A stretch of 64,000 nucleotides of DNA from the NCBI GenBank assembly GCA_964644965.1, contig CAZXYN010000001.1, positions 221,556-285,555 of the forward strand, given 5' to 3'. Origin of the DNA: an uncultured Candidatus Saccharibacteria bacterium (GTDB taxonomy: Bacteria; Patescibacteriota; Saccharimonadia; Saccharimonadales; JACDBH01). Positions 469 to 58,459 of the stretch are shown here, piece by piece (the first letter of the stretch is position 1; each line of letters begins with the position of its first letter). The notes beneath the pieces are model-generated. The model was not told where the DNA came from, searched no databases, and worked only from the letters and a program-made list of their open reading frames with translations. Both the position numbers and the translations under genes were made by a program.

Positions 469-984
469 CTATTTCTTTGTCTTATTGTTACTACTAAAGT
501 TTTTGCCGCCGAAGTATTCGCGCACCTGGAACAACAGATAAAAGGCAATTGCCGAGCCAATTAGTGAACCAAGCAAGCTACCCATACCACGACCACTTAT
601 AAACAAACTCATCAGACCATAGGCTAGGTTAAGCAATGCAACAGCAAACAACAAATCCCAACCGGATTTTTTCTTTGCTTGGAGCCTAGGAAAAGCGGCG
701 AACAGAAGTATCGCCTCTGTCACCAGCACAACTATTGCCAACATAACCGGCAAAGTAATACCAGGGGCATCGCGCTGAATGTTGAATTGCTCTAGAACGC
801 CATATGGGTCGGGGTTACTAACATATCTGATAAGGTACCAAGCAGCCATCGCCTGCAAGAATCCGCCGATTATGGCCAACCACGGCCAAATTTTGGCTAG
901 CCCTTCGCGTGCTTCTTTTGGTAAGTCCGGGAAACTCTTGAAAGGTCCTTCGAGTGCTTTTTCTGCTTGTTTTAGATATTCCAC
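469..984 (-). CDS. hypothetical polytopic membrane protein
   Basis: 171 aa with about four hydrophobic segments (WLAIIGGFLQAMAAWYL, VMLAIVVLVTEAILLFAAF, LLFAVALLNLAYGLMSLF, LIGSAIAFYLLF). Confidence 0.6.
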   Translation of the reverse strand: MEYLKQAEKALEGPFKSFPDLPKEAREGLAKIWPWLAIIGGFLQAMAAWYLIRYVSNPDPYGVLEQFNIQRDAPGITLPVMLAIVVLVTEAILLFAAFPRLQAKKKSGWDLLFAVALLNLAYGLMSLFISGRGMGSLLGSLIGSAIAFYLLFQVREYFGGKNFSSNNKTKK

Positions 985-1058
985 AGTAGTTTAATCCTCC
1001 TAAAAGATTGTTGATTACAGCATACATCTTTAAATCTATGCCGTGCAAGCAAATTAGT

Positions 1059-2081
1059 TCATATGATTAGCATGGCATCGCCGAAAGAGTAGAATCGATA
1101 CTTTTGATCTATAGCATGCCGATATATACGCATAAGTTCAGCGGCGGCATCTGGCTCTGAAAGCCCTTGTTTGTCGGCAATAAAGGCTGCAACTAGCATC
1201 AGCAAGCTAGTCTCTGGCAAATGAAAATTAGTAATCATGCTATCTACTGCCTTAAAGGTAAAACCAGGCCTGATAAAGATATCTGTTTCGTTCATTTGCG
1301 GCACAAAATTATCTGTTTGGCGCATTATAGATTCAAGCGTACGGACAGTGGTGGTGCCAACAGCTGTTGTGTGGCGGGATTGATTAAGTAACTCTGCAGT
1401 CTTGCTAGTCAGCTCGAAATGCTCAGCGTGCAGCCGACCAGAACTCAGTTGTTGGTCTGTTAGCTTGGCAAATGTACCTAGGCCAACGTGCAAAGTAATT
1501 TCTGCGACCGCGTGGTTGTTTCTAATTTTTTTAAGCAATTCATCGGTAAAGTGAAGTCCAGCCGTTGGTGCCGCCAGACTACCGAGCGGTTTTGCGTAGA
1601 CTGTCTGATACTCACTAGCGAGATTATCGTTCTGAGCGATGTATGGTGGCAGGGGAACATGTTCGAATTCTCTAAACCGCTCGTCATCATGATTCACCGA
1701 CAAATAAATCGTCCGAATGCCAGAATCGTCGATAGATGTAGTCTTTAGACTCAACCAATCAGTCAGCTGAATCGTTTTGCCAGGTAGAAACTTGCGGCCA
1801 GGACGTACCATTGCTCTTACGGTGTTATTATCGGCTTTTTCTAATACAAATAGCTCTGTTTTGCCGTCGTCAAACAGCCAGCGGCAATGATCAACTTTGC
1901 TGTTGTTGACTGCAAGAGTGGTTGCAGGATCCAGGTACTGCTCTAGTTCATAAAACTTTGCATCGATAATCTCACCGTCGGACAGACGATACACCAATAA
2001 CCGCGCATGGTCGCGAGGACTAGCTGGCGATTGGGCTATCAAACTATCTGGCAGATCAAACTTATATAGGTCTTTGCTCAC
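1059..2081 (-). CDS. queA: S-adenosylmethionine:tRNA ribosyltransferase-isomerase
   Basis: N-terminus YKFDLPDSLIAQSPASPRDHARLLVY and C-terminal FYSFGDAMLI match the QueA pattern; 340 aa is a typical length. Confidence 0.9.
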   Translation of the reverse strand: MSKDLYKFDLPDSLIAQSPASPRDHARLLVYRLSDGEIIDAKFYELEQYLDPATTLAVNNSKVDHCRWLFDDGKTELFVLEKADNNTVRAMVRPGRKFLPGKTIQLTDWLSLKTTSIDDSGIRTIYLSVNHDDERFREFEHVPLPPYIAQNDNLASEYQTVYAKPLGSLAAPTAGLHFTDELLKKIRNNHAVAEITLHVGLGTFAKLTDQQLSSGRLHAEHFELTSKTAELLNQSRHTTAVGTTTVRTLESIMRQTDNFVPQMNETDIFIRPGFTFKAVDSMITNFHLPETSLLMLVAAFIADKQGLSEPDAAAELMRIYRHAIDQKYRFYSFGDAMLII

Positions 2082-2657: not shown

Positions 2658-5483
2658 ATGTCATCAGAAAAGTTTGAGCCAAATCCGGGGCAACAGCAGG
2701 TATACGACCACAAGTCTGGACCGCTACTAGTTGTAGCTGGGGCTGGGACGGGTAAGACTAGAGCCATTACCGAAAAAATCAGCAAACTGCTAAGTGAGGG
2801 TGTAAAACCCGAAAACATCCTAGCCGTAACGTTCACAGAAAAAGCCGCTGCCGAAATGTCCGAGCGAGTACAAGAGGGTCAGCGAGGTCTGCTGCTGGAC
2901 TTGCCGATCATGACTTACAACGGCTACGGCGATCGAATTTTGCGCGAGTTTGGCATTCACATTGGATTGCCGCGTACTTTCCGGCTGCTAACATCCCAGG
3001 CAGCAATTGTGTTTATGCGTGAGAGAATTGATCAATTTAGACTAGACTATTTCTTGCCGCTCACAACCGTGCCAGACAGTATTATTGAGGACATTCTGGG
3101 CTACTTTAGCAAGCTCAAGCAACACATCGTAACACCTGAGGCTTATCTGAAGTTTTCCGAGGGATTAACGTCTGAAGACGAGGCACAATCAGCTGACAAA
3201 CGCATGCACCAGGAGCTGGCTGTAGCCTACGACACATACATAAAACTTTGCAGGACTGAAAATGTTATCGATTATGATGATCAAATATTCCTGTCGATTC
3301 AGCTCATAGAAAGTCGTCCGAATGTGCAACAGATTCTGAAGAAACGTTATCACACAGTGTTTGTCGATGAGTTCCAGGATACAAATCCTATGCAGTCACG
3401 TTTTATAGACCTGCTTGTTCCAGAAAGCCGCAACCTAATTGTAGTTGGTGATGATGATCAAGCAATTTATGGATTTCGCGGTGCCACCATCAGTAATATT
3501 CTTAATTTTAAACAGCATTATACCGATGCCGACGATGCAGTTCTAACTATTAACTACCGCAGCCATCAAAGCATCTTAGATGCTGCATATAAGTTGATTC
3601 AGAACAATAATCCAAATAGATTAGAAGCGTCTCTAGGCTTGAACAAGCGACTGACTAGCAATAGACCTGGCAACCAGCCGCAGTTGTTTCATTTTGCAGA
3701 AAATAGTCAGGAGCTAGACTGGCTTGCTAGTGATATTCAGAGAAGACTTGAAAGTCATAATCCAAACGAAAAAATCAGCATAGCAGTACTGGCTCGCAGC
3801 AATAACGGCGTGCAAGCCGTGCACCAAGCGCTCAGCACACACGCAGTTGAACATAGGGTTATTGGGCTAACTCCCGATCTGTACAGTCGTCCGGTGATTC
3901 GGATGATCATAGAGCTAATCAGGACGATTACCGAGCCGGGCAACGACGCTAGCCTTCACCATACACTGATAGGTGAGCTGTTTGGGCTGAGTAACAGCCT
4001 GATTGCTCCTTATGCAAAGAAAGCTCGCTACGAGCACGAGGATCTCGAGGATTTATTGGCGAAGGTACCGGATGCTGCGGTAGCAATTGGTGCCATACGC
4101 AAAGCTCGTGAGAATGCTGCCAGCCAGAGCGTTGGTATGCTGCTTTGGCAATTTTTAAAGGATTCTGGTTTTACCGAGAGGCTGCTAGAGATTGCTCCCA
4201 CAGACGACGCAGCAGGCCATGCGCTTGGCAACCTGAGCCAATTTTTCGACACGCTTAAAGAGTTTGAAAATATCGCAACACAACCAACGACCGCCCAATA
4301 CCAGTTAGCCCTACCAGCATTGATGGCGGCCGGTCAATCTACTGACGACACACTTGGTCTTACCGAAAATGAAATAGTTGTGACTACAGTGCACAAAGCC
4401 AAGGGGCTAGAGTGGGATACTGTTTATTTGCCGCAATTAACCGAACAAAAGTTCCCGATGTGGAAACAAGGTGGTGGCATAGAACTTCCCGAAGATTTGC
4501 GCTCCAGAAGTCTAAGTGATGCCGATGAACACTACAGCGAAGAACGACGTGTCATGTATGTCGCCGTAACCCGTGCCCGCCAAAACTTGTTGCTCAGCTT
4601 TGCCGATGGAGCCCGTAAGCCGTCTAGATTTATAGACGAAATGTTTGGCAAGGGGACTGCCGAGGGAACGCCTTATACAGACGTAGTTAGTTCTCGTGCA
4701 CATCTTGATTCTCCAGTTGATGATATACAGAAAGTTGAAGTGCCGCTTAGTATTTATGATGGCAAGACAGTTACATTAGACGTCACCAAAGCTCAGACAT
4801 TACTAAATTGTCCTCTCAATTTTTATTACAAATACGTATTGCAAGTACCAAAAGAACCAGGTGCAGCCGCAGATTACGGTACTAGAATGCACAGCTTCAT
4901 TCAGGAGATAAATGAGAACCTGTACAAGAAAGAAGATTTGCGTCCGTTAGAGGATATGATAGAAGATCTGGCAAAGGGCTGGCACAAATTTGGCTACGCT
5001 AGTAAATCACAGCAGGAGCGTGCTCTAAACCAGGCAAAAAGCACACTAACAAGCTTCTACAAACAAGCTACTACTAGCCCAGCACCAATCGCCGTAGAAG
5101 ACGAATTCTATGTAGAGATTGCAGACAATCTTGTATTAGATGGTCGAATAGACGCGGTCTACGACAATGACGGAATTGAAATACGTGATTACAAAACCGG
5201 CTATGCTGCTAAGGACGAGACTGAAGCCAAAGCCAAAGCAGGTGAGAGCAGACAGCTTGAGCTTTATGCGCTAGCTTGGCTGACAAAAACAGGTGAACTG
5301 CCAGTCAAGTTAAGCCTACACTACGTCGACACCAACTCTATTGGCTATGCCAACAAAAGGGTCTCGACAATCGAGAGGCGACGCGAGCAGTTGATAGCAG
5401 CTGCCGATAACATCAGGCAGGGTAATTTTCCGCTCGGGTCATCACACCGCTACTGTGTACATCCACCAGTTTCTGAGACTTAG
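2658..5483 (+). CDS. UvrD/PcrA-family SF1 helicase fused to a C-terminal PD-(D/E)XK nuclease domain
   Basis: Walker A AGAGTGKT, VDEFQDTN, VGDDDQAIYGFRGA, VTTVHKAKGLEW; C-terminal GRIDAVY...IEIRDYKTG...QLELYALAW nuclease-like motifs. Confidence 0.85.
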   Translation: MSSEKFEPNPGQQQVYDHKSGPLLVVAGAGTGKTRAITEKISKLLSEGVKPENILAVTFTEKAAAEMSERVQEGQRGLLLDLPIMTYNGYGDRILREFGIHIGLPRTFRLLTSQAAIVFMRERIDQFRLDYFLPLTTVPDSIIEDILGYFSKLKQHIVTPEAYLKFSEGLTSEDEAQSADKRMHQELAVAYDTYIKLCRTENVIDYDDQIFLSIQLIESRPNVQQILKKRYHTVFVDEFQDTNPMQSRFIDLLVPESRNLIVVGDDDQAIYGFRGATISNILNFKQHYTDADDAVLTINYRSHQSILDAAYKLIQNNNPNRLEASLGLNKRLTSNRPGNQPQLFHFAENSQELDWLASDIQRRLESHNPNEKISIAVLARSNNGVQAVHQALSTHAVEHRVIGLTPDLYSRPVIRMIIELIRTITEPGNDASLHHTLIGELFGLSNSLIAPYAKKARYEHEDLEDLLAKVPDAAVAIGAIRKARENAASQSVGMLLWQFLKDSGFTERLLEIAPTDDAAGHALGNLSQFFDTLKEFENIATQPTTAQYQLALPALMAAGQSTDDTLGLTENEIVVTTVHKAKGLEWDTVYLPQLTEQKFPMWKQGGGIELPEDLRSRSLSDADEHYSEERRVMYVAVTRARQNLLLSFADGARKPSRFIDEMFGKGTAEGTPYTDVVSSRAHLDSPVDDIQKVEVPLSIYDGKTVTLDVTKAQTLLNCPLNFYYKYVLQVPKEPGAAADYGTRMHSFIQEINENLYKKEDLRPLEDMIEDLAKGWHKFGYASKSQQERALNQAKSTLTSFYKQATTSPAPIAVEDEFYVEIADNLVLDGRIDAVYDNDGIEIRDYKTGYAAKDETEAKAKAGESRQLELYALAWLTKTGELPVKLSLHYVDTNSIGYANKRVSTIERRREQLIAAADNIRQGNFPLGSSHRYCVHPPVSET

Positions 5484-6581: not shown

Positions 6582-7007
6582 CTAGCGACGACGTCGAGAC
6601 TTGAGTCCGGCAACCTGCAGGCGCACCGCTGAGCGGTCAATTAGGCTCTGGGCCTGTTCTAGACTTACCTGATCTTTGGCTTCGGCCTTGAGTTTTTGAG
6701 CACGCTCCATTGCGGCTTTTGCCTCTTCTTCACTGATTTCGTCAGAGGCATCGGCTTCGTCAACCAAGACACGCAAACTGTTGCCCGATACTTCTATTGC
6801 GCCACCAGAAATGGCAAAGTGTTCCATCATGTCGTCTGGCTCATTACTGTTACGGCGCACAGATATTGCACCGGCCTTAGCAACGCTGATTAGCGGCATA
6901 TGGCCAGGCAGCACCCCAATCTCACCATCCATGGTCGGTAGGATAATCTCATAAACTTCCTCAGAGAATTTGACGCCGTCCAAACTAACTAGCTGAAAGT
7001 TAATCAC
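6582..7007 (-). CDS. atpC: F1 ATP synthase epsilon subunit
   Basis: FQLVSLDGVKFSEEVYEIILPTMDGEIGVLPGHMPLIS pattern; last gene of the atp operon; GTG start at 7005-7007. Confidence 0.85.
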   Translation of the reverse strand: MINFQLVSLDGVKFSEEVYEIILPTMDGEIGVLPGHMPLISVAKAGAISVRRNSNEPDDMMEHFAISGGAIEVSGNSLRVLVDEADASDEISEEEAKAAMERAQKLKAEAKDQVSLEQAQSLIDRSAVRLQVAGLKSRRRR

Positions 7008-34837: not shown

Positions 34838-34972
34838 ATTTATGTTTTTTTGGGTCAAAAGACACGTTCTTTAAATAAAGAACCAACTTATTCCATTTTT
34901 GAGTCAGCAAAAAGATCTGGACAAAAACTGACCGGCAACTCAGCCGCCACGGCTTAGCCGTGGCAATATATA

Positions 34973-35037
34973 TGACTTATATAATTAATTATATAAGTCA
35001 GGTTTCTTCCGGTTTATATAAACATTTATATAAACCG
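34973..35037. repeat. two adjacent AT-rich perfect palindromes sharing a TTATATAA core
   Basis: 28-bp palindrome TGACTTATATAATTAATTATATAAGTCA (34973-35000); 13-bp arms CGGTTTATATAAA/TTTATATAAACCG (35010-35037). Confidence 0.9.
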
Positions 35038-35088
35038 TTGCAGTCCTATGGGCATTCACCACTACTCCTGATTTGAATGCTGTAAACA

Positions 35089-35181
35089 AACACAATAGAT
35101 AGCAGGGCGTCAGGTCATGAACTCTATTATGGAACTTCATGACCCGACCACAGGGAGTCCGCCCTGCGTATTGTGTTTTTT
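35089..35181 (+). ncRNA. candidate ~90-nt structured RNA (three nested helices plus U-run)
   Basis: AACACAATA(35089)/TATTGTGTT(35169), AGGGCG(35104)/CGCCCT(35160), GGTCATGAA(35113)/TTCATGACC(35136), then TTTTTT; in an ORF-free gap. Confidence 0.4.
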
Positions 35182-35225
35182 ATCAGCAATTCAAGTCAAG
35201 GGTAGGGGTGTGCCGAGTTTCTTTG

Positions 35226-35255
35226 CATACTTTCTTGTCGATACAAGAAAGTATG
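35226..35255. repeat. 13-bp perfect inverted repeat
   Basis: CATACTTTCTTGT-cgat-ACAAGAAAGTATG; lies downstream of the minus-strand PEGA operon. Confidence 0.85.
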
Positions 35256-35300
35256 AGGTTGGTTCTTCATTGGAAGAACATTATAGTGTCTGGTTTCTTA

Positions 35301-56033: not shown

Positions 56034-56669
56034 ATGGGATTATTTTACCGAAGAGAAGAAGAGAATACCGAGATCTTATATCAGGTTGGTACCTCACAGG
56101 AGAAAACCAAGCTGGTCGTAGGACTAGGCAACCCTGGCGCCAAATACGACAAGACCCGGCACAACGTCGGTTTTGCATGCCTGGATTCACTAGCCGAAGC
56201 CGAGAACGGCAACTGGAGCGAGAAGAAATCACTCAAGAGCCTCGTAGCCGACCTAAGAGTTGGTCAGACGCGGATTATACTCTGTAAGCCTTCAACCTAT
56301 ATGAACCTCAGTGGAGAGGCCGTACAGGCCGTACAGAGCTATTTCAAGCTGACCAACGCTGACACTCTGGTGGTTCACGACGAATTAGACATAAATTTTG
56401 GCCAAATCCGCAGTCGGATCGGCGGAAGTGCAGGCGGCCACAACGGTATAAAATCACTAATCCAGCACTGTGGTGAAGATTTTGGCCGGGTACGTATAGG
56501 TATTAAGAACGAGTTTAGCGACAATGTCGATTCGGCCGATTTTGTCCTGCAAAAATTCTCAAAACCCGAGCAAGAACAGATGAAAACACTAATTACAGAA
56601 GTAAACTCGATTATAAACGATTTTGCCTTTGGCGGGCAGCTACCAGCCGACACCCGAACTTTTCTCTAG
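56034..56669 (+). CDS. pth: peptidyl-tRNA hydrolase
   Basis: LVVGLGNPGAKYDKTRHNVGF and VVHDELD motifs; TATACT 56021-56026 lies 7 nt before the ATG. Confidence 0.9.
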   Translation: MGLFYRREEENTEILYQVGTSQEKTKLVVGLGNPGAKYDKTRHNVGFACLDSLAEAENGNWSEKKSLKSLVADLRVGQTRIILCKPSTYMNLSGEAVQAVQSYFKLTNADTLVVHDELDINFGQIRSRIGGSAGGHNGIKSLIQHCGEDFGRVRIGIKNEFSDNVDSADFVLQKFSKPEQEQMKTLITEVNSIINDFAFGGQLPADTRTFL

Positions 56670-56956
56670 TTTTTTAGTCTGTCGAGCTCTGCCAAAATTA
56701 CTGGCTTTGAATAAAACCTAAACTGTTCGGTTCTATTGTTCTTTTTATAAAGTCGAGCAGCTATTACAAGTCCCGTATTCGCAGCCGTAATACATTCTCC
56801 TAAAGAAATGTTTAGAGCTCCTTTGTTTTCGGCATACCAATCTTTCGCAATCGTTGCCGCAAACTGCGCATAGCTATCAAAAGTTGGATCGTTATTACCA
56901 ACTCCTTCGTATTTCTCGAGGTAATTGATATATTCTAGCGCTTCTTTATCAGTCAT
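56666..56956 (-). CDS. hypothetical small protein
   Basis: 96-aa ORF, convergent 4-nt overlap with pth; no motif recognised. Confidence 0.5.
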   Translation of the reverse strand: MTDKEALEYINYLEKYEGVGNNDPTFDSYAQFAATIAKDWYAENKGALNISLGECITAANTGLVIAARLYKKNNRTEQFRFYSKPVILAELDRLKN

Positions 56957-57000
56957 CTGTAAATCATACTACTAGGAGAAAAATAAATACAAAACAAATA

Positions 57001-57035
57001 GAGCTTCCAGAGGGGGTGGGCACCGCTGGAAGCTC
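57001..57035 (-). terminator. 10-bp-stem hairpin followed by a T-rich tract on the minus strand
   Basis: GAGCTTCCAG / CTGGAAGCTC with a 15-nt loop; the minus strand continues TATTTGTTTTGTATTTATTTTT. Confidence 0.5.
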
Positions 57036-57545
57036 TATTTGGGCTCGAACAAGTCGAGCCTAAGTTACACCCTTCAACCCACCTTGAAGGCCTCCGTTTT
57101 AGGTATTCTCGTAAAGATATCCAAAACGGCCCACTCTAGGTTGTCCGTCACTTCGCCAAAATAGCCGCAAATAAAACGCGGTGGGAGTGCGGGGTTAAAG
57201 GGGTTAGTTTGTTTTAGAGCGCTGTACGGTTCAAAGAACCAACGCGCAATAGAGATAAGTGGAGGGTAACAACTTAAAATCAAGCACGCTCTAAAACAAT
57301 CTAACATCCTGAACATTGCACCTGCGGCACCAGCCAAGCAAAGCTTGTCTGCTGGCCGCCTTTTGGCGCATCTTCACATTTTTTCTTCTCGATGCTCCTT
57401 CAACGTATTAGAATACGTCTCAGTCCGCTCGGAAGAAAGAAATGTGAACCTGCATACAAATGCAAAGTTCAGTGTCCGCCAACTGACGGACGTTAGCATA
57501 GGGGTATAAGGTACGTAATCACCACCTCGGGTAACTACAGATTGC
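57001..57545 (-). ncRNA. candidate large structured ncRNA of unknown class (strand uncertain)
   Basis: 650-bp gap with no credible ORF; 13-bp long-range helix 57209-57221/57287-57299 plus at least 7 local helices; terminator-like end at 57001-57035. Confidence 0.3.
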
Positions 57546-57607
57546 TATTTTAGCAAATATATGTGATTATGTCAATACTTATTTAACCATAATGCAAAAA
57601 AGTCAAC

Positions 57608-58459
57608 ATGATTAAGCTTACTGCCAAAAACATCCCCCCAGAACTCCACCGACTGCACGCTCCACCAAAACAACTATATTTGAGTGATGATTCTCTAGCT
57701 CAGTTACTCAAAAGACCTCGGATCGGAATCGTTGGTAGCCGCAAGGTTAGCGCCTACGGCAGGGCGGTGACAACGAAACTGTCCAGCGATCTCGCAAGTA
57801 AAGGCGTAGTGGTGGTCAGTGGGCTCGCACTCGGTGTCGATTCGATCGCACATTCGAGCTGTTTGCAAGCCGGAGGTTCCACAATTGCCGTACTACCCGC
57901 TGGACTCGATCAGATTTATCCATCCTCACATTTTCAATTGGCGCACGATATCGTTACAAAGGGCGGATTATTAGTGTCCGAATACCCTGAGCGTACCGAG
58001 CCGCTGCGGCATAATTTCATTGCCCGCAACCGTATTATTGCAGCCTTATCTGAGGGATTGCTGATAACCGAAGCCGCTCTGGCCAGTGGTAGCTTGCACA
58101 CCGCACGCTTTGCCATGGAGCTAGGGATTCCGGTGTTTGCAGTACCAGGGCCAATTACCAGTTCTACCTCTGAAGGAACCAACAATCTCATCAAGGTCGG
58201 AGCTATTCCAGTCACAAGCGTAGAAGACATTTTGAACGAGCTAAAATGGCAAGATACTGCCAAGCAATCCAGCGACACCGCCGCTTACAGCGACCAAGAA
58301 CGCTTGGTGATAGACCTGCTCAAGCAGGGAATTAGCGATGGTCACGAATTACTTATTCTCTCCAAACTAGAAGCCTCAAAATTCAACCAAGCCCTAACTA
58401 TGCTAGAGATCATGGGCAAAATCCGTCCGTTGGGCGCCAACAACTGGTCACTGACTTAG
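57608..58459 (+). CDS. dprA: DNA-processing protein DprA
   Basis: GIVGSRKVSAYG, VSGLALGVDSIAH and GSLHTARFAMELGIPVFAVPG are typical of DprA. Confidence 0.88.
   Translation: MIKLTAKNIPPELHRLHAPPKQLYLSDDSLAQLLKRPRIGIVGSRKVSAYGRAVTTKLSSDLASKGVVVVSGLALGVDSIAHSSCLQAGGSTIAVLPAGLDQIYPSSHFQLAHDIVTKGGLLVSEYPERTEPLRHNFIARNRIIAALSEGLLITEAALASGSLHTARFAMELGIPVFAVPGPITSSTSEGTNNLIKVGAIPVTSVEDILNELKWQDTAKQSSDTAAYSDQERLVIDLLKQGISDGHELLILSKLEASKFNQALTMLEIMGKIRPLGANNWSLT

Follow-up and report, generated by a model that had tools for sequence, protein, structure and literature searches.

New classes of large structured RNA are seldom found, and every one has prompted questions about what roles remain for RNA in modern cells. 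ROOL and GOLLD are large noncoding RNAs (ncRNAs) that are often found in prophages and beside tRNA genes, and RNAIII is similar in size to the RNA described here. To our knowledge, constraint of the kind reported below is normally seen only in RNAs with central functions, such as RNase P RNA, tmRNA, SRP RNA, and 6S RNA. The genomes of Saccharibacteria are about 1 Mb in size and carry very little noncoding DNA, and members of the group can now be cultured and genetically manipulated. OLE and the raiA motif are described as large, highly conserved bacterial ncRNAs whose biochemical function is unresolved (PMC9723947, PMC10861870).

Here, we describe a locus upstream of dprA in a Saccharibacteria genome; "the window" refers to the whole 64-kb stretch of DNA that was analyzed. 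The minus-strand region 56985-57575 very probably constitutes an independent, self-contained gene for a structured ncRNA, and we are highly confident that this gene is real, conserved, and outside the known RNA families. A sequence-only reading of the same DNA had treated the 650-bp gap upstream of dprA as exceptional in the window; it is unusual but not unique, as the region at approximately 34875-35300 is also ORF poor. That reading had also proposed a minus-strand RNA of about 450 to 550 nt belonging to an unknown class. A conserved promoter (57575-57547) and a conserved terminator were found to bracket approximately 550 nt, and a search of Rfam 15 returned no known family.

The gene between pth and dprA

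The RNA is predicted to start at approximately 57542 (+/-3), as placed from the -10 box, and to end in the U-tract at 56985-56999. The features of the locus, with the promoter and transcript first and the parts of the RNA following from 5' to 3', are as follows.

57547-57575, minus strand: promoter, with 11 of 12 matches plus the TG in a consensus scan
57575-57570, minus strand: -35 box TTGACA, followed by a 17-nt spacer
57555-57547, minus strand: extended -10 box TGcTAAAAT, giving the near-consensus sigma-70 promoter TTGACA-17-TGcTAAAAT
56985-57542, minus strand: predicted transcript of about 550 nt, from the promoter and terminator positions
57515-57538, minus strand: H1, the 5' hairpin (GUAGUUACC...GGUGAUUAC), in which 4 of 5 basal pairs change on both sides (95 sequences)
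57498-57514, minus strand: block A1, GUACCUUAUACCCCUAU, with near-invariant columns (family consensus G[C/U]ACCUUAUACCCCC)
57300-57497, minus strand: H2, stem GCUAAC (57497-57492) with GUUAGA (57305-57300), carrying an expansion segment in its loop
57306-57491, minus strand: expansion of the H2 loop, 186 nt, lineage specific, folding alone at -89 kcal/mol
57209-57299, minus strand: H3, a 13-bp long-range helix of UUGUUUUAGAGCG (57299-57287) with CGCUCUAAAACAA (57221-57209), enclosing H4 and H5
57257-57275, minus strand: H4, short hairpin AAGUUG-UUACCCU-CCACUU, the C-rich loop of which hardly varies
57219-57247, minus strand: H5, variable hairpin inside H3, including GGUUC-uuu-GAACC at 57240-57228
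57194-57208, minus strand: block A5, ACUAACCCCUUUAAC, of which CCCUUUAAC is invariant
57084-57193, minus strand: subtype-B middle domain, derived by aligning 19 subtype-B sequences and folding them with RNAalifold
57193-57186 with 57152-57145, minus strand: middle-domain helix CCCGCACU with AGUGACGG, enclosing the hairpin at 57181-57165
57136-57128 with 57093-57084, minus strand: middle-domain helix GAGUGGGCC with AGGCCUUCAA, enclosing the hairpin at 57129-57094
57068-57083, minus strand: G-rich block A6, GGUGGGUUGAAGGGUG, invariant among the 12 DprA-derived loci
57042-57060, minus strand: optional hairpin GGCUCGA-cuugu-UCGAGCC, present with covarying stems in some members and absent from the shortest forms
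57000-57036, minus strand: 3' terminal hairpin, an intrinsic terminator, followed by a U-tract at 56999-56985
57026-57010, minus strand: 17-nt apex GCGGUGCCCACCCCCUC, capping the 3' terminal hairpin

The element was present in every related Saccharibacteria locus examined, a check that the earlier reading had called for. In each of the 11 Saccharibacteria genome loci that span the region upstream of dprA, its place is between pth and dprA/topA, and full-length copies occupy the same position on at least 120 metagenome contigs. The gene order is pth, RNA, dprA, and topA, except in about 15 loci without dprA, where the upstream neighbor is topA. The 106 distinct sequences of the element range from 316 to 579 nt and fall into 101 clusters below 92% identity. 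Relatives match across the full predicted length in nhmmer searches. The promoter string GTATTGACA...TTTGCTAAAAT is kept in 12 of 12 aligned loci, and a pattern search recovered a matching promoter in 111 of 114 extracted copies. Nucleotide conservation of the gap extends across 11 loci even though the DprA proteins are only 49 to 55% identical, and it exceeds that of the neighboring genes. Position and sequence have been inherited vertically in more than 100 genomes, and the family appears to be confined to Saccharibacteria (TM7). Beside the 3' end of the RNA is a variable gene slot, and in many loci pth directly abuts the terminator; no Pfam domains were found in the variable ORFs downstream of the RNA.

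At gathering score, none of the 4227 models of Rfam 15 matched the region in the window or in 36 host loci. When the threshold was relaxed to an E value of <=10 for positions 56600-57750 and for a 341-nt homologue, only miRNA-type hairpin noise was obtained, and 14 short loci searched at E<=1 gave no known-family match beyond tRNAs and miRNA-like noise. The covariance models for OLE, GOLLD, ROOL, HEARO, and raiA likewise produced no match, and no description of this RNA was found in the literature searched.

Covarying helices and invariant blocks

The RNA has a core of at least eight helices that is kept by compensatory mutations. Covariation was evaluated at 46 base pairs in 95 sequences against 500 shuffles; compensatory changes occurred at 35 of the 46 pairs, and 88% of cells were paired, versus 33 to 50% with slid partners. 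Changes on both sides of a pair were seen in 352 cells versus 104 +/- 12 in the shuffles, none of which (0/500) reached the observed values. The check for covariation that the sequence-only reading had called for gave a strong signal, and the helices that it had listed were recovered. These comprise the 13-bp helix of TTGTTTTAGAGCG (57209-57221) and CGCTCTAAAACAA (57287-57299) enclosing GGTTC-aaa-GAACC (57228-57240), the hairpins at 57071-57090, 57094-57129, 57324-57359, 57403-57418, and 57474-57491, and the hairpin at 57001-57035, which a T-rich tract follows on the minus strand. The minimum free energy of the minus strand is -227 kcal/mol (z = -9.7 versus dinucleotide shuffles, compared with z = -7.4 for the plus strand). 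Helix cells contained 291 G-U and U-G combinations versus 128 A-C and C-A combinations, an excess that favors the minus strand as the RNA strand.

The individual helices differ in how freely their sequences vary. H2 is paired in 97% of cells, with changes on both sides at 4 of 6 pairs, and its stems in three loci (L027, L088, and L050) are wholly different in sequence yet complementary. H3 is paired in 94% of cells and shows compensatory changes at 8 of 13 pairs. The string UACCCUC in H4 is invariant in 95 sequences, and the H4 stem covaries, with AGU/ACU replaced by CGU/ACG, GGU/ACC, or GAGC/GCUC. A hairpin occupies the H5 position in all sequences, unrelated in sequence and length from one to another, and the same site carries an expansion of 60 to 130 nt in another sublineage. 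Among 19 sequences, C-G is exchanged for U-A and G-C for U-A in the subtype-B middle helices, and the apical loop of the hairpin at 57129-57094 is CUUUACGAGA; in another 76 family members, the middle domain is of a different type, subtype A. In the 3' terminal hairpin, all nine stem pairs change on both sides, and 94 of 100 sequences share an identical apex, which had been part of the metagenome search pattern.

Helix tips expand freely across the family, and the 186-nt insert in the window is one example. The sequence-only reading had not foreseen that 57306-57491, which holds three of its hairpins (57324-57359, 57403-57418, and 57474-57491), is a lineage-specific expansion. A near-identical relative (L023) has a 19-nt loop at this point, and another locus (L067) has a shorter related version; the expansion seen in the window is absent from all relatives. 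No second copy of it was found in the window or in any locus, and a mobile element as its source was rejected.

Six near-invariant sequence blocks are embedded among the helices, and every member examined has approximately 100 invariant or nearly invariant nucleotides per RNA. Four of the blocks are C rich (ACCUUAUACCCCC, the loop UUACCCU, AACCCCUUUAAC, and the apex GCGGUGCCCACCCCCUC), and A6 is the only invariant block that is G rich. The search pattern used to collect the metagenome set fixed A6 and the apex in advance, and the unbiased sample for block conservation is the 12 DprA-derived loci. Block A1 is predicted to be either unpaired or engaged in long-range pairing; RNAalifold pairs it with A6, in columns that do not vary. 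A5 is complementary over 9 bp to GUUGAAGGG in A6, and neither side varies. A6 is likely to be the hub of long-range pairings with the C-rich blocks. The C/U position of A1 showed no correlation with the base after GGG in A6, at which natural variants are few.

Apex hairpins in phages and competing explanations

The 17-mer apex GCGGUGCCCACCCCCUC occurs only once in the 64-kb window, and it caps hairpins in 53 viral contigs, whereas about 4 would be expected. Of the 54 viral occurrences, 47 sit on a stem of 6 or more uninterrupted pairs (null rate, 0.3%), and the stems of these hairpins are unrelated to one another. The viral hairpins occupy intergenic positions, some between tRNAs and others next to portal, major head, terminase, and endolysin genes; a -10 box precedes and a T-run follows several of them. 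Host assignments for the hairpin-bearing phages are presumptive. In one viral contig (L180), the entire RNA is present beside RecT-like, FtsK-like, and methylase genes. Matches to A6 and A4 in viruses were at chance level and without further homology, and the cultured-phage records in GenBank contained no meaningful match to the hairpin. The quasi-palindrome GGUG..CACC in the apex could in principle support loop-loop contacts. That the apex of the terminator hairpin is a module common to phages was an observation that the earlier reading had not anticipated.

A protein-coding or decayed gene is almost certainly the wrong explanation for the region. The 87-codon TTG ORF (57074-57337, minus strand) is the only notable frame in the gap and the longest sense ORF in the family, in which the median is 35 aa, and the short tblastn matches obtained in some relatives merely track the invariant nucleotide blocks. 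Spacings between invariant blocks are even over the three frames (40/35/27 and 40/31/35), and no reading frame is conserved in the family. It is also improbable, although less so, that the RNA is a highly diverged RNase P RNA, tmRNA, SRP RNA, or 6S RNA that escapes the covariance models in this CPR lineage. Its size, single copy, strong promoter, and clade-wide conservation would fit such a role, DNA insertions accumulate at its 3' end as they do at tmRNA and tRNA genes, and PGAP annotated only 2 ncRNAs in one cultured Saccharibacterium, Nanosynbacter KC1 (PMC8830319). RNase P RNAs of CPR bacteria are diverged and often fall below default thresholds, but they are still detected by RF00010 at a low score (PMC8172020). 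In contrast, the RNase P models gave no match here at E<=10 (56600-57750 and the 341-nt homologue) or at gathering score (the window and 36 host loci), and no conserved block resembles the CR-I (GGAAAGUCC) or CR-V (ACAGAA..GGCUUA) strand of P4. Among the 106 sequences, GGAAAGTCC was found at <=1 mismatch in 2, the 12-mer at <=2 mismatches in none, and the CR-V pattern in 3. ARAGORN identified two tRNAs and no tmRNA in the window, and the only match to a tmRNA model was a 17.7-bit mt-tmRNA match (E = 7.4) outside the conserved core; the T-loop word (7/106) and CCACCA (4/106) are read as sporadic chance occurrences. Neither a tag reading frame nor a tRNA-like domain was found, and the 5' end forms a local hairpin, with neither a P1 nor an acceptor stem linking it to the 3' end. 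P4 motifs and a tmRNA tRNA-like end had also been sought by eye in the sequence-only reading, with the same outcome. The SRP RNA models (RF00169/RF01854) gave no match at E<=10, and the domain IV pattern with its GGAA tetraloop was present in 0 of 106 sequences. The 6S RNA model (RF00013) gave none at E<=10 either, and a multibranched RNA of 316 to 579 nt contrasts with a rod of about 180 to 200 nt whose large central bubble resembles an open promoter. At gathering score, rnpB, ssrA, and ffs were not found on the same contigs within the host-locus flanks examined.

A trans-acting antisense regulator comparable to RNAIII or RsaE, whose C-rich loops would pair with G-rich ribosome-binding regions and repress translation, is unlikely. 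Four conserved C-rich segments, among them words resembling CCUCC near H4 and the CCCCCUC of the apex, and the possession of its own promoter and terminator are in line with such a regulator, but the CCUCC word is partly buried in the H4 stem, and class-level conservation with an eight-helix core is atypical of base-pairing sRNAs. Many genes of this genome look leaderless, with an SD-like motif in only 19 of 59 long ORFs, and the rest of the 64-kb window contains no other match to the apex on either strand and thus no near-perfect complementary site. We regard as very unlikely a cis-acting element, whether a leader or riboswitch for a downstream minus-strand gene or a control of dprA through overlapping divergent promoters. 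ORFs on the strand of the RNA often follow it (here a 96-codon ORF at 56666-56956), and the -35 box lies only 33 nt from the dprA ATG. However, the ORFs downstream are orphans that vary from genome to genome and bear no relation to one another, many loci have none, a leaderless promoter of its own appears to serve the 96-codon ORF, and no conserved downstream gene or gene class of the kind expected for a riboswitch was found on the RNA strand. The loci that keep the RNA without dprA speak against a role in dprA control, and about 300 nt of covarying structure would be superfluous for promoter interference. There is very little likelihood, finally, that the region is a DNA-level feature, such as a recombination or attachment site or a mobile-element remnant, with the phage hairpins as attP. 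Direct repeats of the 3' end of the RNA flank approximately 0.6 to 0.7 kb of inserted DNA in two host loci, L006 (70-nt repeats that end within the apex) and L117 (40-nt repeats), and the hairpin may therefore also act at the DNA level; the variable gene slot at the 3' end and the gene neighborhood in L180 point in the same direction. Against this stand the vertical inheritance of the locus, covariation that tolerates G-U pairs, which is a signature of RNA, the lack of an integrase adjoining the host gene, and the placement of the phage hairpins in structural or lysis modules or between tRNAs. The attP interpretation itself was rejected on two grounds, the unrelated stems and the lack of an integrase among the viral neighbors tested.

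A proposed role and its relation to described RNAs

Taken as a whole, including both the parts that are observed and those that are inferred, the data are best explained by an uncatalogued family of Saccharibacteria RNAs, and we consider this explanation probable. The RNA would be abundant and stable and would work in trans at the core of a ribonucleoprotein, which would place it closer to OLE, raiA, 6S, or RNase P RNAs than to leaders or base-pairing sRNAs. Pairing of the G-rich strand with the C-rich blocks would lock a compact, pseudoknotted core. The 3' hairpin would function as the terminator and, by way of its invariant apex, as a docking or stabilizing site for a host factor, and phages may have added copies of this hairpin to small RNAs and late mRNAs of their own so as to exploit or titrate that factor. 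This mechanism, combining a trans-acting ribonucleoprotein with a docking hairpin, is put forward tentatively. It is conceivable, although less likely than not, that the family represents an unrecognized clade-wide ribonucleoprotein (or ribozyme) RNA whose apex is a host-factor tag copied by diverse phages of these ultrasmall epibionts. If that were true, it would amount to phage-host molecular mimicry at the RNA level, built around a new large RNA. The phage-borne copies of the hairpin provide an independent handle on function, as whatever binds the apex would matter to both host and virus, and the family offers a ready marker and a covariance-model seed for the annotation of CPR genomes.

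Like OLE and raiA, the Saccharibacteria RNA is a lineage-restricted stand-alone gene of several hundred nucleotides in which covarying helices alternate with invariant single-stranded blocks, and it too is likely to work within a ribonucleoprotein. It differs from both in showing no sequence or structure match in Rfam, in its CPR/Saccharibacteria host, in lacking adjacent partner genes such as oapA/B, and in having a terminal hairpin module common to phages. A link to phages and tRNA arrays is shared with ROOL and GOLLD, as the apex hairpin occurs in phages, including between tRNA genes; however, the phages have only the hairpin of about 40 nt, whereas the gene for the large RNA lies at a syntenic position on the host chromosome, and the RNA has no match to either family in Rfam. 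Several exposed C-rich loop motifs recall RNAIII and RsaE/RoxS, but the Saccharibacteria RNA is far more deeply conserved and has a complex covarying core, and its host genome makes little use of SD sequences, with no targets found in the window. With tmRNA it has in common its size, the direct-repeat DNA insertions at the 3' end, and a neighbor, pth, that belongs to the physiology of ribosome rescue, whereas it lacks the tRNA-like domain, CCA end, and tag frame and ends in an intrinsic terminator. RNase P RNA of type A, the diverged CPR forms included, is similar in size, single copy, strong promoter, conserved core, and lineage-specific expansions of helix tips but differs in the P4 strands (CR-I/CR-V) and P1 end pairing, which the Saccharibacteria RNA does not have, and its models gave no match even at E<=10. 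The G-rich word GGGUUGAAGGGUG of the Saccharibacteria RNA loosely recalls the GGGUGAAAGGGUG of E. coli M1 RNA.

A conserved RNA gene upstream of dprA

The region at 56957-57607 contains all of the helices that the sequence-only reading had listed, each where it had placed it, and no sizeable open reading frame besides one minus-strand TTG frame of 87 codons. It folds far better than shuffled controls on both strands (-227 kcal/mol and z = -9.7 on the minus strand; z = -7.4 on the plus strand). A consensus scan identified a single promoter-like site in the region, with a score of 11/12, and the predicted promoter and terminator bracket a transcript of about 550 nt, in line with the earlier guess of about 450-550 nt.

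Features of the RNA gene and its surroundings
57575-57547, minus strand: promoter, TTGACA, 17 nt, and TAAAAT with TG ahead
57306-57491: insert of 186 nt taking the place of the short loop of helix H2
57036-57000, minus strand: terminator hairpin with a U-rich tract 3' of it
within 56666-56999, minus strand: 96-codon ORF directly downstream of the RNA

Among helix cells of the family alignment, G-U and U-G combinations (291) exceed A-C and C-A combinations (128), and this excess, together with the promoter and terminator, identifies the window's minus strand as the RNA strand. Just 33 nt separate the -35 box from the start codon of dprA (57547-57610), so that two divergent promoters must overlap; if the RNA promoter is very strong, it could hold back transcription of dprA.

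A search for homologues, named beforehand as a check, used the window's DprA as query and found 15 genome loci. DprA of the Saccharibacteria loci is only 49-55% identical in protein to that of the window; in all 11 of the loci that include the region, the DNA upstream of dprA matches several blocks of the window's gap at 70-83% identity, and a twelfth, broken off at a contig end, keeps the promoter block. The alignment consists of six invariant blocks and the promoter, with hairpins of variable sequence and length between them. A two-block pattern drawn from it matched at least 120 contigs of a metagenome collection, and a profile HMM recovered the whole element, including the promoter, in each metagenome contig listed, where the contig reaches far enough. 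Among the matches listed there were 106 distinct sequences of 316-579 nt in 101 clusters (<92% identity). Synteny is kept throughout the loci, in the order pth, a variable slot, the RNA, dprA, and topA. The profile HMM did not find the element in the DprA-found Patescibacteria, Clostridia, and Synergistaceae loci (L012, L014, and L015). One related locus, L099, carries two full, non-identical RNA copies in inverted orientation, at 981-1439 (minus) and 2845-3306 (plus), with pth and dprA fragments on either side; the pair could reflect a true duplication or else a palindromic artefact of assembly.

Structure, conserved blocks, and known RNA classes

Covariation, another check named in advance, was tested on a 95-sequence alignment for seven helix sets: H1 (the 5' hairpin), H2, H3 (the 13-bp helix of the sequence-only reading), H4 (a small hairpin), a pair of helices from the middle domain in its commoner form, and the terminator stem. 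Standard pairs occupy 88% of cells, a share that falls to 33-50% if the 3' partners are shifted by 1-3 columns. Both sides change in 35 of 46 pairs (352 cells, versus 104 +/- 12 in shuffles), and none of 500 shuffles reached the observed value of any measure. The middle domain divides the family in two, subtype A (76 sequences) and subtype B (20 sequences); the window's copy is of subtype B, whose helices covary too. The segment GUUAG has two possible partners, upstream UCUAAC (H2) and downstream ACUAAC (extending H3). The H2 pairing is fully compensated in three related sequences (L027, L088, and L050), and some variants, judged by eye, compensate both pairings; such dual pairing may permit alternative conformations.

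The 186-nt insert folds independently (-89 kcal/mol) and behaves like an expansion segment. The H2 loop is 19 nt long in a near-identical relative (L023) and 4-40 nt in most relatives, a related but shorter version of the insert occurs in L067, and no further copy was found anywhere in the window and loci. Three of the local hairpins noted earlier fall within the insert and outside the conserved core. A second, independent expansion site of about 60-130 nt is a hairpin before the H3 3' strand in one sublineage (L011, L016, L032, L086, L092, L114, L116, L126, and L133), which keeps words such as GTATA and GGCAA..GGTTA..GCT.

Invariant blocks of the RNA
A1, C-rich: ACCUUAUACCCCC
H4 loop, C-rich: UUACCCU
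A5, C-rich: AACCCCUUUAAC
terminator apex, C-rich: GCGGUGCCCACCCCCUC
A6, the sole G-rich block: GGUGGGUUGAAGGGUG

Each of the four C-rich blocks has a complement in A6, through GGUGGG with CCCACC, GUUGAAGGG with CCCUUUAAC, and AGGGUG with CACCUU or UACCCU. RNAalifold picks A1:A6 among these pairings; the choice is undecidable because the columns hardly vary. The invariance of A6 and the apex in the metagenome set is imposed by the search pattern; both are just as invariant in the 12 DprA-found loci. The subtype-B apical loop (57108-57117 in the window) reads CUUUACGAGA, or UUGCGAGAGGA in other members, and is similar to the sarcin-ricin loop word, ACGAGAGGA; likewise, the H3 3' strand GCUCUAAAACAA and CCCCUUUAAC of A5 are similar to boxA (GCUCUUUAACAA). 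Either likeness may be chance.

With Rfam 15 at the gathering score, two tRNAs were the only matches in the window. At E ≤ 10 the region matched nothing but miRNA-precursor models, which fit any long hairpin, on both strands, and ARAGORN found no tmRNA. No known family other than such hairpin noise matched the element in 36 related host loci at the gathering score, in 14 short loci at E ≤ 1, or in a 341-nt homologue alone with the most permissive filters. RNase P RNAs of the Candidate Phyla Radiation (CPR) have diverged, yet RF00010 detects them with low scores (PMC8172020), and the annotation of one cultured Saccharibacterium lists just two ncRNAs (PMC8830319); for both reasons the search for housekeeping identities matters. 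RNase P and tmRNA motifs had already been looked for by eye and not found; of the 106 members of the family, 0-7 contain words for RNase P (CR-I and CR-V), tmRNA (T-loop and CCA end), or SRP domain IV, which is the chance level. The architecture, with a local hairpin at the 5' end, no helix joining the 5' and 3' ends, and a multi-branched fold, also argues against these three identities.

The spacings that separate invariant blocks fall evenly into all three reading frames, and no family member has a longer sense ORF than the 87 codons of the window's (median, 35 aa), so the RNA is non-coding and a coding reading is contradicted. About 15 loci without dprA, where topA is the upstream neighbour, keep the RNA, which is therefore not tied to dprA; a cis-regulatory reading is contradicted, as is one at the level of DNA. 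That the RNA regulates ribosome-binding sites by base pairing is less likely because the genome appears largely leaderless, with a -10 box some 7 nt ahead of many ATGs and SD-like motifs at no more than 19 of the window's 59 long ORFs. A TATAAT-like box stands 6-10 nt before the start codon of many window genes (leaderless-looking examples lie upstream of 2658, 22420 on the minus strand, 25913, 48924, 49705, 50499, 54310, and 56034).

The element is an independent, conserved, structured, non-coding gene of high interest, and the original observation, a large ncRNA of unknown class, is real and supported. We infer that the RNA is stable, abundant, and trans-acting and forms a ribonucleoprotein. 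The G-rich strand would arrange the C-rich blocks as a compact core, and the 3' hairpin would serve as transcription terminator and, via its apex, in docking or stabilisation.

The apex hairpin in phages

The exact 17-nt apex is present in 53 IMG/VR viral contigs, where about 4 would be expected by chance, as calibrated with a 15-mer from another block (57 matches without further homology). At 47 of 54 viral occurrences, at least 6 uninterrupted complementary bases directly flank the 17-mer (null rate, 0.3%), and these stems are unrelated to one another and to the host stems of the alignments. Except in L180, a contig classed as viral, the hairpin occurs alone, without the RNA. These contigs come from genuine phages, as their portal, terminase, major head, and endolysin genes show.

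Sites of the hairpin in phage contigs
in the gap that separates a portal gene and small ORF from the late gene after them
3' of the major head gene
3' of the endolysin cassette
between tRNA genes
mini-genes: -10 box, short leader, hairpin, and T-run

The absence of an integrase among the neighbours tested speaks against attP sites. The 64-kb window has a single copy of the 17-mer, as does each host locus but two; the 17-mer is therefore not a general terminator, and it was not found in cultured-phage records. The apex may be recognised by a host factor, a recognition that phages would also use. In one phage group (L141, L145, L152, L154, L160, L163, L168, L169, and L171), a second conserved hairpin, CCAGC-nnn-GCTGG, comes after the apex hairpin in every case, and next come an AAGGAG ribosome-binding site and an ORF of about 270 aa; this arrangement suggests a composite 5'-UTR element of a late gene. 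Within Rfam 15, the accessible literature, and annotated collections, the RNA family and the phage-borne hairpin module are undescribed.

Neighbours and the 3' end of the gene

The 96-codon ORF lacks Pfam domains, and none of the related loci has a homologue of it. Its putative leaderless promoter (TTGTAT-18-TATGAT-7-ATG) overlaps the RNA's U-tract, and its stop overlaps that of pth, tail-to-tail. Elsewhere in the window, a second ORF-poor stretch (about 34875-35300) contains AT-rich near-perfect palindromes (about 34973-35000 and 35010-35039) and other hairpins, with no credible Rfam match.

Two related loci contain partial second copies as direct repeats. L006 (4843-4937) repeats 70 nt of the 3' part of the RNA, up to a point inside the apex, about 600 nt downstream; L117 (872-919) repeats 40 nt of the hairpin about 700 nt downstream. 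An orphan ORF is flanked in both cases, and the pattern resembles the footprint of an insertion at the terminator hairpin. From genome to genome, the slot between pth and the RNA is occupied by different ORFs, none with a Pfam domain. L180 (5738-8375) carries a complete subtype-B RNA with its promoter, adjoining RecT-like, FtsK/SpoIIIE-like, and DNA methyltransferase genes, and a separate lone apex hairpin on the opposite strand (6863-6879). Because of the repeats, the variable slot, and the L180 context, the 3' end of the RNA gene looks like an insertion hot spot, such insertion being secondary to vertical inheritance of the RNA. In this it looks like tRNA and tmRNA genes, which are insertion hot spots.
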